Shown: positions 18,480 to 57,072, counted from the stretch's first letter. The stretch: DNA of 64,000 bases from Candidatus Zambryskiibacteriota bacterium (GCA_016177225.1 JACOVQ010000004.1:3328-67327), one strand, 5' to 3'. The notes: generated by a model not told the origin, from the sequence alone. Program-made: numbers and translations.

Positions 18480-19306
18480 AATATATTTGGCCGTGCGCGA
18501 CAATATTCTTCATGGTGTTTCTCTGGCGAATATCTCCGCCAGTTTCCTATCCTCAAGGCTCCATTATTACCGTTTCTCCCGGCAGTCTTTATGAAATAGG
18601 AGAGGAATTAAAATCTTTTGGCGCGATACGTTCGCCGTTTTGGTTTAGAATTGCCGCTATCATTGTCGGCGGTGAGCGCAATATGAAAGCGGGCCAATAT
18701 AAACTGACTCGTCCACAAAATGTCTTTGTCGTCGCTTGGCGCGTCGCTCGAGGAGAACGTGACATCGAGACTGCCAAGATTACCATTCCGGAAGGTTTTA
18801 CCGTTTCGGAAATATCCTCGCTTTTTGACGCGCGATTTCAGTTATTCGACCGCCAATATTTTTTGACCCATGCTTCTGAAGGATATCTCTTTCCAGACAC
18901 ATATTTTATTCCCGTGACCGCCACAGCTTCATCGACCATTAAGCTTTTTACCGATAATTTTGACAGAAAAACTCTTGGTCTCCCGGTAACCAAGGAAGTG
19001 ATTGTCATGGCTTCTCTTCTTGAGAGTGAAGCTAAGACCGAAGAAGAAAGGAAATTAGCGAGTGGCATTTTATGGAAGCGCCTGAAGCTCGGCATGCCTT
19101 TACAGGTCGATTCGGCGATGAATACTTACGAGTTTCAAGGCTTGCCGGAGGCGCCGATTAATAATCCGGGACTTGTTTCCATCAATGCCGCTCTTAATCC
19201 CAAATCTTCTCCCTATTTATATTTCTTGACAGATAAGGAAGGGAAAATGCATTATGCAAGGACATTTGATGAACATAAAACAAACATCGCGAAGTATCTG
19301 CGATAA
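18476..19306 (+). CDS. mltG: endolytic murein transglycosylase MltG (YceG-like)
   Basis: N-terminal TM anchor, GLPEAPINNPG motif. Confidence 0.75.
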   Translation: MKYIWPCATIFFMVFLWRISPPVSYPQGSIITVSPGSLYEIGEELKSFGAIRSPFWFRIAAIIVGGERNMKAGQYKLTRPQNVFVVAWRVARGERDIETAKITIPEGFTVSEISSLFDARFQLFDRQYFLTHASEGYLFPDTYFIPVTATASSTIKLFTDNFDRKTLGLPVTKEVIVMASLLESEAKTEEERKLASGILWKRLKLGMPLQVDSAMNTYEFQGLPEAPINNPGLVSINAALNPKSSPYLYFLTDKEGKMHYARTFDEHKTNIAKYLR

Positions 19307-20336
19307 GCGCGTTTTTATCGGCTTATCCGGCGGGGTGGATTCTGCTGTTTCAGCAGGACTGCTGAAACAGCAGGGATACGATGTCACCGGAGTATTTATC
19401 AAAGTATGGCAGCCTGATTTTCTGCCGTGCAGTTGGAGAGATGAAAGGCGCGATGCCATGAGGGTGGCTATTGCGCTTAATATCCCGTTTTTATTTTTTG
19501 ATTTTGAAAAAGAATATAAAAAGGGCGTAGTGGATAAAATGATTAGCGAATATAAAGCCGGCCGCACGCCGAATCCAGATGTGCTCTGCAACAGAGAAAT
19601 TAAATTTGGCGCCTTTTGGAAGAAAGCAAAAGCAATGGGAGCCGATTACATAGCCACCGGACACTACTGGAGCGGAGAAAAAAACCAGTCGTATTTTCTT
19701 TGGACTCTGACTCCGGAAGATTTGTCTCACACGCTTTTCCCGGTTGGTAATATGGAAAAATCTGAAGTAAGAAAGCTCGCCAAGAAATTTAACTTGCCGG
19801 TGTCGGAGAAAAAAGACAGCCAAGGTGTCTGCTTTATTGGTGAAGTAACTATGGAAGAATTTTTATCGCACTTCATTGAAACCAAACCCGGTAAAGTACT
19901 CGATATTTCCGGCAAAGTCATCGGCACTCATCAAGGAGCGGTGCTTTATACCATAGGCGAAAGGCATGGCTTTGATATAGAAAAGAAAAATCCGGAGGCC
20001 GGAGCCTATTACACCGTCTCAAAAAATTTAAAAGCAAACACCATTACCGTATCCAATAGCCTTCAAGAAATATCGACTCTTTCTCCGACCAAAGTTTCTC
20101 TCACAAAAGTGAACTGGATTACAGAACCTAAAATACCAGAAGTTTTGGCTCAGATTAGATATCGCGGCGAAAAGATTCCAGTCACTCTCGCTCTTACCAG
20201 CAAAAAATTAACGGCGGAATTTCCAAAACCAATCAGGGGATTGTCTCTAGGCCAATCAATCGTTTTCTATGTGGATCTTGAGAATAATTATTCTCAATGC
20301 CTCGGCGGCGCCGTGATGGATAAAGTTCTGGAGTAA
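19269..20336 (+). CDS. mnmA: tRNA-specific 2-thiouridylase MnmA
   Basis: FIGLSGGVDSAVSA PP-loop; start moved to Met6 to limit overlap with mltG. Confidence 0.85.
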   Translation: MNIKQTSRSICDKRVFIGLSGGVDSAVSAGLLKQQGYDVTGVFIKVWQPDFLPCSWRDERRDAMRVAIALNIPFLFFDFEKEYKKGVVDKMISEYKAGRTPNPDVLCNREIKFGAFWKKAKAMGADYIATGHYWSGEKNQSYFLWTLTPEDLSHTLFPVGNMEKSEVRKLAKKFNLPVSEKKDSQGVCFIGEVTMEEFLSHFIETKPGKVLDISGKVIGTHQGAVLYTIGERHGFDIEKKNPEAGAYYTVSKNLKANTITVSNSLQEISTLSPTKVSLTKVNWITEPKIPEVLAQIRYRGEKIPVTLALTSKKLTAEFPKPIRGLSLGQSIVFYVDLENNYSQCLGGAVMDKVLE

Positions 20337-20350
20337 TCCACAGTATCTAG

Positions 20351-20378
20351 TTGTAACTACTTTATACTACGTTATAAT
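20351..20378 (+). promoter_or_regulatory. sigma70-like promoter TTGTAA-16nt-TATAAT, -10 embedded in the first 35-bp palindrome
   Basis: Read directly. Confidence 0.4.
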
Positions 20379-20403
20379 AATGCGGTCGCACATAATTAAC
20401 GTA
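20369..20403. repeat. 35-bp imperfect palindrome ACGTTATAATAATGCGGTCGCACATAATTAACGTA (operator-like), copy 1
   Basis: 29/35 identical to copy 2; ends ACGTTA/TAACGT are reverse complements. Confidence 0.7.
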
Positions 20404-20972
20404 TGGGTAATTTAGAACAAAGCAGCAAGAAAAGAAGCAAAAGAAAACATCTCCAACAGATGATTTTAAAAACTATAGCTGCCGCCGGCGTATTGGGTGT
20501 TGGATTATTGGCACCTAATGTTATAGGAACAATGGCAAAGCTTGGAATAATACCTAAGTTTAGGCAGAAAGAATATGTGTCGTCATCAGCCAGTAAGATG
20601 GCTAAAAAGGGATTAATAAAATTCAACGGCAAGTTCTACGAACTGACTGCTTTAGGAAAAGAAAAAATGCGGAGATGGGAATTCGCCGATTTCCAATTGA
20701 GAAAACCAAAGAAATGGGATAAAAAGTGGCGAGTAATGATTTTCGATATTCCGGAGAAGAAGAGAGTGGTGAGAAACGACTTAACAACACTTTTTAAAAA
20801 AGCTGGTATCAGGCGTCTTCAAAATAGCGTGTGGATATATCCGTATGATTGTGAAGACATTATCGCATTACTTAAAACGGATTTTGGTATTGGCAAAGAC
20901 TTACTGTATTTAATTGTAGACGAACTGGAAAATGACAAATATTTGCGAGAAGAGTTTGATCTAATCCATTAA
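20403..20972 (+). CDS. PaaX-like transcriptional regulator (basic N-terminus, wHTH, C-terminal PaaX-C/Cas2-like fold region)
   Basis: WRVMIFDIPEKKRVVRNDLTTLFKKAGIRRLQNSVWIYP matches the PaaX C-terminal pattern W..W.v.FDIPE..R..R..L...L...G...LQNSVW. Confidence 0.5.
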   Translation: MGNLEQSSKKRSKRKHLQQMILKTIAAAGVLGVGLLAPNVIGTMAKLGIIPKFRQKEYVSSSASKMAKKGLIKFNGKFYELTALGKEKMRRWEFADFQLRKPKKWDKKWRVMIFDIPEKKRVVRNDLTTLFKKAGIRRLQNSVWIYPYDCEDIIALLKTDFGIGKDLLYLIVDELENDKYLREEFDLIH

Positions 20973-20989
20973 GACGAATTATTTTCAAT

Positions 20990-21024
20990 ACGTTAAAATA
21001 ACGCGGTCGCGTAAAAGTAACGTA
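20990..21024. repeat. 35-bp imperfect palindrome ACGTTAAAATAACGCGGTCGCGTAAAAGTAACGTA, copy 2, upstream of the ATP-cone nuclease gene
   Basis: See copy 1. Confidence 0.7.
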
Positions 21025-21070
21025 GGTGTAAAATTGTTGTTTGTGTTTATACTATTGATATACTTAAAGA

Positions 21071-21769
21071 ATGACAGTGTCGGAACAAATAGTGATCCTT
21101 AAGGCCAATGGCAAGCGGGAGAGCTTTGAGCCTGAAAAATTGCGAGCATCGCTCATGCATTCCGGAGCGACGGAAGAGGCCGCTACAAATGTGCTAACTC
21201 ATCTCTTGCCGGAGTTGCATGATGATATGACAACGGAGGAAATTTATAAGCACGCTTTCTCGACTTTACAGCGGATGTCCAAGCCGATTGCCAGGAGCTA
21301 TTCTCTCCGCCGAGCGGTAATGAGCTTGGGACCGTCGGGATTTCCTTTTGAAGATTTTGTTGCCGAGGTTTTGAGAGTACAGGGCTTCGAATGCGCCACG
21401 AGGCAGGTGGTTTTGGGCGGATGTGTGCCGCACGAAGTGGACGTGGTGGCTTATAACGAGAAAAAATTGATTATGGTGGAAGCGAAGTTCCACAACGAGC
21501 TTGGAACCAAATCGGATTTGAAGGTGGCGCTCTATGTCAAGGCAAGGTTTGACGACCTTAAGGAAAATGTTTTTGACTACGGAGGCAAAGCGAGAGCTAT
21601 CACCGATGCCTGGCTTATCACCAATACTAAATTTTCGAGTACCGCCATCCACTACGGCGTCTGCAAGAACCTTACAATGATAGGCTGGAATTATCCGGAG
21701 AGAGGCAACCTTCAAGATATGATTGAGAACAGTCCGGCATTATTGAAGAGAATTTATGGAGAAAGATGA
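21071..21769 (+). CDS. ATP-cone domain fused to a PD-(D/E)xK (Mrr-cat-like) nuclease domain
   Basis: N-terminus IVILKANGKRESFEPEKLRASL (ATP-cone); C-terminus HEVDVVAY...LIMVEAKF (D..(E)xK nuclease motif). Confidence 0.55.
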   Translation: MTVSEQIVILKANGKRESFEPEKLRASLMHSGATEEAATNVLTHLLPELHDDMTTEEIYKHAFSTLQRMSKPIARSYSLRRAVMSLGPSGFPFEDFVAEVLRVQGFECATRQVVLGGCVPHEVDVVAYNEKKLIMVEAKFHNELGTKSDLKVALYVKARFDDLKENVFDYGGKARAITDAWLITNTKFSSTAIHYGVCKNLTMIGWNYPERGNLQDMIENSPALLKRIYGER

Positions 21770-22337
21770 AGCTTTAAGACAGATTAAAAATGAGGTGGTC
21801 GCTCTCTCCGTCTCTCCGCTTTATGCCGAGCGGGTAAAACATAAATACTTCCCGGTAATAGGAGAGGGAAATCATAATGCCGAAGTTATGTTTATCGGCG
21901 AAGCGCCGGGCGAGAACGAAGCAAAGACCGGCAGGCCGTTTTGCGGGCGGGCGGGCAAGGTGCTCGACATGCTTTTAGAGTTTGTCGGTATTGCGCGCAA
22001 GGATGTCTATGTGACTAACATCGTCAAAGACCGCCCGCCCGCCAATCGCGACCCCAGCCCTGAAGAAATTGAAATTTACGCGCCGTTTCTTGACCGGCAG
22101 ATTGAGATTATTAAGCCCAAAGCGGTGGCTACGCTCGGGCGATTCTCCATGGTATACGTCATGAACCACTACGGTCTCGAGTGGGAAGTGGGACCAATAA
22201 GCGTTTTGCACGGACAAATCTTTCAAACTTCTAACTTCAAACTTATACCCTTGTACCATCCCGCCGCCGCCATTTACAACCAGCATCTCCTGGATACTCT
22301 GAAGGAGGATTTCAAAATATTAAAAACTCTGATTTAA
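21756..22337 (+). CDS. uracil-DNA glycosylase, family 4
   Basis: GEAPGENEAKTGRPFCGRAGKVL motif. Confidence 0.8.
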   Translation: MEKDEALRQIKNEVVALSVSPLYAERVKHKYFPVIGEGNHNAEVMFIGEAPGENEAKTGRPFCGRAGKVLDMLLEFVGIARKDVYVTNIVKDRPPANRDPSPEEIEIYAPFLDRQIEIIKPKAVATLGRFSMVYVMNHYGLEWEVGPISVLHGQIFQTSNFKLIPLYHPAAAIYNQHLLDTLKEDFKILKTLI

Positions 22338-22346
22338 TAGTAGCTC

Positions 22347-23489
22347 ATGAAGTCGGAAGAAATCAGAAGCAAATTCCTAGAGTTTTTCCAAAAGCGCGGG
22401 CATGTCATCGTTCCCTCATCTTCTGTCGTGCCTGATAAGAACGATTTATCCGTGCTGTTTACAACAGCTGGCATGCAGCAATTCAAGCCGTTTTACTTGA
22501 GAGAAAAATCGCCTTATGGCAGTAATGTGGCCTCATCCCAAAAGTGTGTGCGTACTTCCGATATCGAAGAAGTGGGGGATGAAAGACATCTGACATTTTT
22601 TGAAATGCTTGGAAACTTTTCTTTCGGCGGATACTGGAAAAAAGAAGCGATTTCCTACGCGCACGAATTTATAACAAAAGAGATGGGCCTATCAATAGAT
22701 TATGTCACTATTTTTGAAGGCGATAGCGAAGTTTTCGAAGATAAGGAATCTGTAAACATTTGGAAAGCGATTGACCCGAATTTAACGATAAAGAAATTTG
22801 GCCGTGAAGATAACTTCTGGGGTCCTACGGGCGAGTCCGGCCCATGCGGCCCAACAACGGAAATTTATGTCAACGGCATCGAAATCTGGAACATCGTGTT
22901 CAATGAATATTTTAAAAATGTCGAGGGAAAGTTTGAGAAGCTCAAACAGACAGGCATTGATACCGGCATGGGTCTGGAGCGCCTGACTATGGCGCTCCAG
23001 AAGAAAGAAACCGTTTTCGAAACCGATTTGTTCAAATCTACTATGCAAGTGGCCAATTCAAGCATTATTGCCGACCATATCCGTACCTCCGTGTTCATGA
23101 TTGCCGACGGCGTTTTGCCGTCCAACACCGACCGCGGCTATGTGTTGAGAAGGCTTTTGCGGCGCGCATATATACATGCGCGCAAACTTAAAATTGAAAC
23201 CGAAACCTTGAATGCTGTGATTGGAAAGGTAGTGGAACATCCAAGCTATAAGGGTCTCTATGCTTTCGCGGAAAATACGAAAGAAATAGTAATGAATGAA
23301 ATCGAGAAGTTTAAAAAAACGCTCGAGACCGGATTAAAACAAGTTAAAGCAGACCGAGACCCGTTTACTCTTTTTACGAGCTTTGGTTTGCCGCTTGAAA
23401 TTATTAAAGAAGTAGTGCCAAACGTCGATGAAGATAAGTTTAAGAAACAAATGGAAGAGCATAGAAAACTTTCCAGTAGTAGTTTATAA
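22347..23489 (+). CDS. alaS: alanine--tRNA ligase, N-terminal catalytic fragment only (380 aa)
   Basis: MKSEEIRSKFLEFFQKRGHVIVPSSSVVP...TTAGMQQFKP canonical AlaRS N-terminus; ORF ends before the editing and C-Ala domains. Confidence 0.8.
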   Translation: MKSEEIRSKFLEFFQKRGHVIVPSSSVVPDKNDLSVLFTTAGMQQFKPFYLREKSPYGSNVASSQKCVRTSDIEEVGDERHLTFFEMLGNFSFGGYWKKEAISYAHEFITKEMGLSIDYVTIFEGDSEVFEDKESVNIWKAIDPNLTIKKFGREDNFWGPTGESGPCGPTTEIYVNGIEIWNIVFNEYFKNVEGKFEKLKQTGIDTGMGLERLTMALQKKETVFETDLFKSTMQVANSSIIADHIRTSVFMIADGVLPSNTDRGYVLRRLLRRAYIHARKLKIETETLNAVIGKVVEHPSYKGLYAFAENTKEIVMNEIEKFKKTLETGLKQVKADRDPFTLFTSFGLPLEIIKEVVPNVDEDKFKKQMEEHRKLSSSSL

Positions 23490-23496
23490 TTCCTTT

Positions 23497-24732
23497 ATGC
23501 CGAAGCACATCGAAGACATAATCATTCCTCTAAAGAGAAAAACTATCAGAGACATTCCTATTCCCAGTAATCGTAAAAAATCTGAGCACTTTGCGACTGC
23601 TCCGTCTGAAGAAAGAAAGATAAAACATCACTCAAAAAAAAAGTTATGGGTTGCTTCTGGCGTCGTCTTATTACTGTTAATCTTTGGCGCATTAGCAGTA
23701 TTTGACGGGGCAACCCTCGCTTATGTGCCCAAATCCGCCAATCTCTCTTTCAAAGGCGATGTTTATACGGCAAGGCGCACGGGAGAAAATCTTTCATACA
23801 GCATAGTCAAACTTTCCAAAGATAAAGAGAAGAGCGTGCCTGCTTCCGGCACGGAAGAAGTAAAACGTAAAGCCTCCGGTACCATTGTGGTGTATAACTC
23901 CGCAAGCGCGCCGCAGAAATTGATAGAGAATACGCGCTTCCAAACGTCGGAAGGGAAGGTTTATCGCATCAAAGACGCGGTAATTGTTCCCGCCAACGGT
24001 TTCATGGAAGCGCTCGCGTATGCCGATGAGGCAGGAGATAGTTATAACGTCGGTTTGTCAGACTTTACTCTGCCCGGGCTTGCCGGCACTTCGAAATTTA
24101 AAGACGTTTACGGCCGTTCCAAGACGCCGATGGCCGGCGGGTTTATAGGCAAGGAAGCGGTAGTAAAGAATGAAGATAAAGCCAAAGCCACCTCAGAGCT
24201 TGAAGCGGCTCTTCGCGAGGAACTCCTGGCCGAAGCGAAAGCCCAAGTGCCTGATGGATTCAGTATGTTTCCGAATCTTGTTGCCGTAAACTTTGAGACC
24301 TTGCCGTCGACGGCTTTGTCTGGCGCCAATGCTGTCATTAAAGTTAAGGGCGATTTTGCCGGCATGATGTTTAAGAAAAGCGATTTATCAAATCAATTGG
24401 CTAACAGTAAGATAAAAATTGCCAGTGGAGAATTGGTGGATATAATGCCGCTTGAGTCTCTCGAAGTATCTTTTGCCGGTAATGCTCCAAAGGACCTTAT
24501 ATCAATGAATGAAATCAACCTTTCCGTGACTGGCGACACTACGGCCGTATGGCGCACCAATGAGACCGCTCTCAAAACAGACTTAGCCGGCCGCAGTAAG
24601 CGCGACATTCCGGCGATATTGAATAATTATCCCGCCGTTGTTTCGGCTACGGCCACCGTCAGACCGTTTTGGAAAAATAGTTTTCCTCTCAACTCCGCCA
24701 AAATTACGATAAAGAAAAATGCTCCAAAATAA
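23497..24732 (+). CDS. membrane-anchored hypothetical protein
   Basis: Single N-terminal TM; start set at Met24 after the alaS stop. Confidence 0.45.
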
Positions 24733-29425: not shown

Positions 29426-29520
29426 TACATCTAAAATACGCTATAGCATAAGATAGATGTATTACATTATTATTCCACGACCGTGTAAAAATAATGTATG
29501 AGGATTTTATAAAGTAGAAA

Positions 29521-57030: not shown

Positions 57031-57072
57031 AAATACATAATAAGAATGCTATAGCATTCTTATTATGTATTT
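57031..57072. repeat. perfect 42-nt palindrome AAATACATAATAAGAATGCTA|TAGCATTCTTATTATGTATTT between convergent genes
   Basis: Read directly. Confidence 0.8.

Follow-up and report, generated by a model that had tools for sequence, protein, structure and literature searches.

PaaX is the phenylacetyl-CoA-responsive repressor of the paa catabolon of Escherichia coli and binds palindromic operators. Both PaaX (PDB 8A39) and Rv0674 (PDB 3KFW) have an N-terminal winged helix and a Cas2-like middle domain. The same middle domain, preceded by a putative winged helix, is found in a small protein encoded in the DNA that is the subject of this paper, a 64-kb stretch (referred to below as the window) from Candidatus Zambryskibacteria, within the Patescibacteria or Candidate Phyla Radiation (CPR). 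The gene of this PaaX-like protein is enclosed by two palindromes, one upstream (U) and one downstream (D), and we refer to the palindromes and the gene together as the cassette. It is followed by a gene whose product, here called the fusion protein, joins an ATP-cone to a nuclease of the PD-(D/E)xK type, and then by a gene for a family-4 uracil-DNA glycosylase (UDG4). For the fusion protein, the closest described systems are NrdR, in which an ATP-cone is likewise joined to a DNA-interacting module, and AF1548 (PDB 1Y88), which was predicted to be restriction-endonuclease-like, with D38, E51 and K53 as catalytic residues (2007; PMC1821046).

The original prediction made for this DNA took the PaaX-like protein to be a dedicated repressor that gates the nuclease, so that the two genes (or three, with UDG4) would form a module, possibly one for defence. 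The window genes were mapped onto 80 loci of different species that carry an orthologue of the fusion protein. The conserved order is a YceG-like gene, mnmA, the fusion gene, a variable slot, UDG4, alaS and a gene for a 434-aa protein. The PaaX-like gene stands between mnmA and the fusion gene in seven of the 80 loci, besides the window. In the 73 cassette-free loci, the fusion gene begins 0-90 nt past mnmA, no palindrome is present, and a TGnTATAAT, GATATACT or GAGATAAT element lies at the mnmA stop codon, directly 5' of the fusion ATG. The window retains the equivalent element despite the cassette (TGATATACT, 21056-21064, plus strand), an extended -10 read from the sequence and the putative promoter of the fusion gene itself. 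Because the PaaX-like gene is missing from 73 of the 80 loci, where the fusion gene is palindrome-free and sits behind a putative promoter of its own, a regulator-nuclease module as such is not supported. The PaaX-like cassette and the fusion gene are independent units, and they are neighbours by accident.

As a general module, the dedicated-repressor reading is largely refuted, and dropping it averts a false lead. It drew on the D palindrome, which in the window and the seven related loci separates the regulator from the fusion gene, and on the core shared by both palindromes, so that one protein could bind both. However, most loci keep the fusion gene and its promoter without regulator or palindromes, and the palindrome-gene-palindrome unit also occurs beside rpmB, peptidase M50 and Lactamase_B genes, often with a convergent gene downstream. 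The second palindrome had been assigned to the control of the nuclease gene; instead, both palindromes accompany the PaaX-like gene, even beside unrelated or convergent neighbours. The D palindrome is also outside the fusion core promoter, since it ends 31 nt 5' of TGATATACT in the window and the two are 34-80 nt apart in the sister loci, a variable distance. No match to a defence system was obtained either, and we regard a dedicated repressor of the nuclease as highly doubtful.

A tree built from mnmA, the fusion gene and UDG4 places all cassette-bearing loci in one clade, within which they are patchy. Each of them has a cassette-free sister, and the sister of the window (L020) is empty. Wherever the PaaX-like gene is present, exactly two palindromes surround it. 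The mnmA/fusion junction (the A site) is a general insertion hotspot, because it is also occupied by purD (L002), by various hypothetical genes elsewhere, and by a gene of about 156-200 aa (...RYTRVLV.GLSDR...) common to L004, which has the cassette, and L025, which does not. In L014, the junction holds a cassette of a different type (D-type). Relics of the mnmA 3' end, a duplicated segment, follow the cassette in L001, L021 and L016. A solo A-type palindrome with an intact TATAAT was also seen in the mnmA/fusion spacer of L032 (3807-3842), in a genome without a PaaX-like gene, and is probably a deletion scar.

The two 35-bp elements that had been described around the PaaX-like gene are indeed at the stated positions (20369-20403 and 20990-21024) and 29/35 identical, and they are found nowhere else in the window; shuffled sequence gave no match to the 35-mers in 100 trials. 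Their inverted ACGTTA/TAACGT ends were read correctly, but the true symmetric unit is 36 nt long, TACGTTA-N22-TAACGTA, which adds a T ahead of each 35-mer. The U palindrome (TACGTTATAATAATGCGGTCGCACATAATTAACGTA, 20368-20403) forms the left edge of the cassette, and its last base is the A of the PaaX-like ATG (20403). The D palindrome (TACGTTAAAATAACGCGGTCGCGTAAAAGTAACGTA, 20989-21024) lies 16 nt past the stop codon and forms the right edge. Similarity between the two repeats extends over about 50 nt (78% identity), and symmetry is limited to the outer 7-8 nt and the inner 4-6 nt, the intervening AT-rich stretches being asymmetric. The 8-mer core GCGGTCGC alone is not significant, with 2 matches against 1.6 expected. 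The proposed TTGTAA-16-TATAAT promoter is present, and its TATAAT -10 (20373-20378) is inside the U palindrome, but related cassettes do not keep the TTGTAA. Another identity considered for the palindromes was that of NrdR boxes. The NrdR box is 16 bp long; the palindromes bear no likeness to it, and their partner is the PaaX-like gene, not the ATP-cone gene, so this candidate was rejected.

The same arrangement recurs in a sample of 96 PaaX-like genes, which came from a metagenome scan and from look-ups of gene contexts. In about 85 of them, a 36-mer adjoins the ATG, with symmetry at 11-18 of 18 positions, and a second one follows 3-68 nt past the stop codon. Against a symmetry background of 4.6 +/- 1.9, a score of 12 is reached by just 0.1% of random 36-mers. 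These cassettes occur in at least eight recurrent, unrelated contexts, with rpmB (on either side), peptidase M50, Lactamase_B and many other genes as neighbours, of which the downstream one is often convergent. Two paralogues (L107 and L132) are 9 kb apart on one contig. TATAAT is found at the fixed positions 6-11 in 40 of 63 unique U copies versus 4 of 62 D copies. Beyond the left edge of the U palindrome, related cassettes showed neither a conserved -35 nor any other conservation. Because no -35 is kept there, the TTGTAA of the window is incidental, and because conservation begins sharply at the palindrome edge, this edge is the boundary of the cassette.

Arms and cores vary among cassettes, while they stay symmetric and match between both copies of one cassette. 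The arm variants are TACGTTA/TAACGTA, TACATCTATA/TATAGATGTA and TACGATA/TATCGTA, and the cores include GCTATAGC, CCTATAGG, CACTGTGGTG and CACGATCGTG besides GCGGTCGC. The core type follows the protein clade, and each context has its own protein clade. Among 125 unique 36-mers, double-change cells numbered 348 versus 152 +/- 13.5 in shuffles, and none of 500 shuffles reached 348, although these statistics are inflated, as the 36-mers were pre-selected for symmetry and are phylogenetically related. In shifted registers, pairing falls to 27-43%. Two symmetric modules can be distinguished, at positions 1-8/29-36 and 13-18/19-24.

Such palindromes could act as nucleic-acid hairpins, i.e., as a terminator, an RNA-processing or stabilising stem, or a cruciform. 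Compensatory changes preserve the self-complementarity of arms and core, some palindromes are perfect over 18 bp (e.g., the D copy of L102), a solo palindrome at 57034 of the window folds as RNA at -19.1 kcal/mol (z -7.7), and the D copy would fall in the transcribed 3' untranslated region. However, the transcript probably starts within the U copy, which holds the -10, and so cannot fold the U hairpin. The two copies flanking the PaaX-like gene of the window fold weakly, at -7.7 and -10.6 kcal/mol (z about -2); their hairpins have large internal loops and lack a T-run. In the D copies, G.T and A.C mismatches number 14 and 10 in the outer arms and 14 and 11 in the inner core, with no strand-specific excess and no preference for G.T. 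The outer arms are conserved in sequence, beyond mere pairing. Symmetric covariation, the match between core and clade, the lack of a G.T preference and the weak RNA folds together favour double-stranded operators bound by a dimer over hairpins, and a hairpin function strikes us as very unlikely.

The PaaX-like gene (20403-20972, plus strand) encodes 189 aa, with a basic N-terminal tail, a putative winged helix-turn-helix (wHTH) and a Cas2-like PaaX_M domain. The PaaX-like architecture had been recognized correctly, but the motif W..WRVMIFDIPE...LQNSVWIYP, which was ascribed to PaaX_C, falls in PaaX_M (PF20803; residues 103-172, E 6.4e-18, 65 bits vs a cut-off of 24), the Cas2-like middle domain. 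PaaX_C has no Pfam match in this protein, and about 17 residues remain after PaaX_M. The scores for the PaaX equivalog TIGR02277 (31.7 bits, cut-off 264.55) and for Cas2 TIGR01573 (22 bits, cut-off 24.5, aligned over residues 110-144) are both below threshold. PADLOC gives a Cas2 match with E 3e-5, and the winged-helix profiles at the N terminus are weak (HTH_45, E 0.05; WH_III-A, E 0.003). A structure model of low confidence (pLDDT 56) has three helices and a beta hairpin (the wing), followed by beta-alpha-beta-beta-alpha-beta. Rv0674 and E. coli PaaX head its fold matches, ahead of many Cas2 proteins, with weak E-values throughout, and it aligns with PaaX and Rv0674 over 172-176 columns; searching the PDB with the sequence gave noise only. 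Homologues of about 188 aa number more than 1,300 and share the conserved N terminus, and some metagenome-assembled genomes hold at least two of them.

The PaaX-like protein differs from PaaX in several respects. PaaX has about 310 aa and a PaaX_C domain, which the 189-aa protein lacks. The PaaX-like protein keeps the Cas2-type beta1 Asp (FDIP), which is invariant among its homologues, and its sole evident targets are the two private 36-bp sites around its own gene. No paa genes lie nearby or in any sampled context; mnmA, the fusion gene, rpmB and peptidase M50 are among the neighbours there. With Cas2 and VapD it shares the beta1-alpha1-beta2 motif, including the conserved Asp, and Cas2 structures are among its top fold matches. 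The repeats of the cassette, at 36 nt and partly palindromic, also resemble many CRISPR repeats. In contrast to Cas2, the PaaX-like protein carries a putative wHTH, there is no cas1, and the two repeats flank the gene itself, with no array.

We propose that the first of the two units, the 657 bp from 20368 to 21024, is an autorepressor cassette. A PaaX-like dimer would bind its own 36-bp symmetric site, the Cas2-like domain serving for dimerisation and the wHTH for reading DNA. On the U site, the protein would switch off its own transcription, because the -10, the start codon and the likely transcription start all fall within the site. That the gene is autoregulated, as was originally predicted, is probable, because in nearly every homologue the U palindrome includes the -10 and runs up to the ATG. 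The D site, with the same private sequence type, would most likely be a second operator, which would strengthen repression by looping or insulate the cassette from its neighbours. The cassettes would belong to an old paralogous family of Paceibacteria (Patescibacteria), in which each paralogue has a private palindrome variant and several may occur per genome. The window copy would have entered the mnmA 3' end in one sub-clade, with repeated loss since. A family whose palindromes co-evolve with their protein is a natural system for studying the divergence of DNA-recognition specificity among paralogues, and it is possibly the relic of an unrecognised mobile element.

The 657-bp cassette might be an autonomous mobile element, or have been one in the past, with the palindromes as recombination ends and the wHTH/Cas2-like protein as nuclease or recombinase; binding at the left end would then also autoregulate, as in many insertion sequences (IS). 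The boundaries are sharp and lie exactly at the palindromes, the ends (TAC...GTA) are mutually inverted, the size is IS200-like, the promoter is within the left end, and the open reading frame (ORF) begins at the last base of that end. The cassette is found in many contexts, in several copies per genome and on both sides of rpmB, and the site in L014 holds a different cassette type. Gene-less solo and twin palindromes are known, including those in the window and the solo copy at the A site in L032, and the target segment is duplicated in L001, L021 and L016, where the mnmA 3'-end relics are found. The Cas2 beta1 Asp is also invariant. As in IS with a promoter in the left terminal repeat and in RAYT/REP systems, a single small gene stands between mutually inverted ends, the promoter in the left end allows autoregulation by the DNA-binding protein, and solo palindromes are found elsewhere in the genome.

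On the other side, the nucleotide identity of cassettes between contexts never exceeds 76%, which argues against recent transposition, and each context has its own long-resident protein clade. Palindromes are missing from empty sites, and a short target-site duplication is not evident. The PaaX-like protein has no Pfam or NCBIfam match to a known transposase or recombinase domain, and no relatives of it were found on viral contigs. Unlike IS and RAYT/REP, the cassette has no DDE, HUH, serine or tyrosine catalytic domain and no near-identical copies, and its palindromes are not dispersed in large numbers. We consider an autonomous mobile element unlikely, and read the cassettes as an old paralogous family, seldom gained and often lost, which may formerly have been mobile. 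That it is an unrecognised minimal selfish or mobile element of CPR bacteria, whose protein recognises, and perhaps cuts, its own 36-bp palindromes, is in our judgement quite unlikely. If true, it would be a free-living Cas2 relative with CRISPR-repeat-like sites, and would bear on how Cas2 and repeats joined.

The gene-less palindromes of the window are of two kinds. Two cassette-type 36-nt palindromes stand back to back, 1 nt apart, at 29426-29461 (TACATCTAAAATACGCTATAGCATAAGATAGATGTA) and 29463-29498 (TACATTATTATTCCACGACCGTGTAAAAATAATGTA). The pair begins directly after the stop codon of a 241-aa ORF, and the second member is followed by an ATG with just four codons. Their arms and cores are like those of U and D in another paralogue type (L119/L128), and the pair may be an emptied cassette. 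The solo palindrome at 57034-57069 (TACATAATAAGAATGCTATAGCATTCTTATTATGTA) is perfect (18/18) and has a terminator that follows a 91-aa ORF on one side and the rplU 3' end on the other. It belongs with the palindromes of F-type cassettes, and no PaaX-like gene is nearby. None of the window genes that flank these palindromes has a counterpart among the loci that were fetched.

The second of the two units would be a vertically inherited housekeeping gene of the mnmA-fusion-(slot)-UDG4-alaS block, with its own promoter. The fusion gene (21071-21769, plus strand) encodes 232 aa, with the ATP-cone at about residues 8-81 and an AF1548-like PD-(D/E)xK nuclease at about residues 90-221. In sequence it is identical to a protein that NCBI lists for a metagenome-assembled genome of Candidatus Zambryskibacteria. 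The domains first proposed, an ATP-cone and an Mrr-cat-like nuclease, are both confirmed by Pfam, with 29.8 bits for PF03477 (cut-off 25.8, E 9e-7) and 22.4 bits for PF04471 (Mrr_cat, cut-off 21). The nuclease half matches AF1548 (1Y88) with E 3e-21, and the family profile does so with E 3e-51 over the whole AF1548 length. The AF1548 residues D38, E51 and K53 correspond to D124, E137 and K139 of the fusion protein. These three, together with K11, G14, K23 and E94, are invariant in 34 members of 34-51% identity; the nuclease residues among them are E94, D124, E137 and K139, in keeping with the conservation of catalytic D/E/K residues on which the original prediction depended. The fusion protein is most likely an active PD-(D/E)xK nuclease. 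In its structure model (pLDDT 60 overall), the ATP-cone (pLDDT 79-90) is the sole usable part, and it matches the ATP-cones of NrdR and ribonucleotide reductases with a probability of 1.00. Both AlphaFold models are poor because the alignments are shallow.

Close homologues of the fusion protein number more than 4,700, at 75-85% identity. Representatives of 50%-identity clusters number 1,002 at E<=1e-3 and 369 at E<=1e-30, and nearly all of those listed are full-length, at about 280 aa. Compared with the common form of about 278 aa, the 232-aa protein of the window is without a 33-residue internal segment (LHPITCL...IK.N), and also without the tail of the AF1548-like C-terminal subdomain. Short forms are found in several lineages (P0003, P0010, P0022, L031, L036 and L040).

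In the common 278-aa form, the alignment with AF1548 takes in the C-terminal subdomain as well as the nuclease half and runs over the whole of AF1548. AF1548, whose function is predicted only, has no ATP-cone, and the window copy is short of most of the C-terminal subdomain. The closest ATP-cone structures are those of NrdR, but the score for NrdR TIGR00244 is 13.2 bits, below the cut-off of 124.65, and the ATP-cone alone aligns. In contrast to NrdR, the fusion protein has no zinc ribbon, its ATP-cone is N-terminal instead of C-terminal, and the partner domain is a nuclease whose catalytic triad is intact. ATP/dATP on the ATP-cone probably sets the activity or the oligomeric state of the fusion protein, as the analogy to NrdR and ribonucleotide reductases suggests. 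If ATP/dATP tunes a repair nuclease, ATP-cone allostery would extend beyond ribonucleotide reductase and NrdR, and the orphan structure 1Y88 would gain a function.

Genes of repair or nucleotide metabolism are among the neighbours of the fusion gene. The survey of neighbourhoods places UDG4 downstream of it in nearly all of the 80 Paceibacteria loci, whereas the expected PaaX-like neighbour is limited to the seven loci and no defence islands appear. The slot before UDG4 holds MgtC in 22 loci, a YfbR-like HD 5'-deoxynucleotidase in 17, a Cas4-like PD-(D/E)xK nuclease in 13, a PolB-type 3'-5' exonuclease in three and an MGMT DNA-binding domain in one, and it is empty in about 20. Among distant members with 36-38% identity, one gene lies 21 nt past a Tag glycosylase gene with uvrB near, and another directly after an AP_endonuc_2 gene. 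The alternative originally offered, a repair nuclease coupled to UDG, thus gains support from UDG4, Tag, AP_endonuc_2 and the repair and nucleotide genes of the slot. The fusion protein probably acts in DNA repair, such as base excision repair (BER), or in DNA processing linked to the deoxynucleoside triphosphate (dNTP) pool, alongside glycosylases, and not in defence. The ATP-cone::AF1548-like nuclease is among the most conserved uncharacterised proteins of Paceibacteria, and it recurs near genes of BER and of deoxynucleoside monophosphate metabolism. As an observation apart, the slot in L001-L080 resembles a small islet of repair and nucleotide metabolism that is kept across Paceibacteria.

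The other possibility raised for the fusion protein was that of an infection or defence effector, i.e., an anti-phage nuclease set off by the collapse of the dNTP pool. ATP-cones sense ATP/dATP, PD-(D/E)xK nucleases are common as defence effectors, and the catalytic residues are conserved here. Against this, the gene is near-universal, single-copy and syntenic among translation and repair genes in 80 species, and its identity of 75-85% over thousands of homologues is unlike that of fast-evolving defence genes. PADLOC gave no significant defence match for the three proteins of the window (Cas2-domain matches for the PaaX-like protein, and noise at E>0.01 for the fusion protein), no PHROG nuclease was matched, and the distant contexts that were sampled include no defence island. 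With its housekeeping context and very high conservation, an anti-phage role appears extremely improbable.

Taken together, two independent units side by side, an autorepressor cassette and a housekeeping ATP-cone nuclease, are to us the probable reading of the locus, and several points weigh against it. The D palindrome of the window is 46 nt before the fusion ATG, and because of this proximity a local effect on the fusion gene is possible. Autorepression, dimerisation and ATP/dATP control are all matters that we infer, as is looping or insulation by the D palindrome; both structure models are of low confidence (pLDDT 60 and 56, as given above), and the covariation statistics are inflated, as noted. 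With regard to repair, MgtC, a non-repair gene, is the most frequent occupant of the slot, of the six distant contexts that are informative for the fusion gene, three have no repair neighbour, and the synteny in Paceibacteria may be merely inherited gene order. A literature search on AF1548, on ATP-cones with nucleases, on PaaX with Cas2 or Parcubacteria, and on Cas2-like proteins with a winged helix found nothing relevant save the AF1548 prediction. In line with the earlier view that no characterised system has such an architecture, both architectures appear to be uncharacterised forms of kinds already known, a wHTH autorepressor and an ATP-cone-controlled DNA-acting protein.

The remaining features of the locus are as follows. 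The syntenic block is anchored upstream by mnmA (tRNA 2-thiouridylase; 19254-20336, plus strand; Pfam tRNA_Me_trans, E 2e-65) and downstream by the catalytic part of alaS (22347-23489, plus strand; Pfam tRNA-synt_2c, E 6e-103). The UDG4 gene (21756-22337, plus strand) scores 182.3 bits with TIGR00758 (cut-off 125.3), and its ORF shares 14 nt with that of the fusion gene, as originally described; the variable slot ahead of it is empty in the window genome. An Rfam scan of the window returned tRNAs and nothing else. The alaS ORF encodes 380 aa, which make up the catalytic domain, and its 3' end is overlapped by the conserved 434-aa ORF (23428-24732). In the related locus L085, AlaRS has 531 aa and a tRNA_SAD domain, and the window AlaRS may be shortened. 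Family-4 UDGs normally have four cysteines as ligands of a [4Fe-4S] cluster. The window UDG4 has one cysteine, C63, and because of this single cysteine it may be a cluster-free variant.

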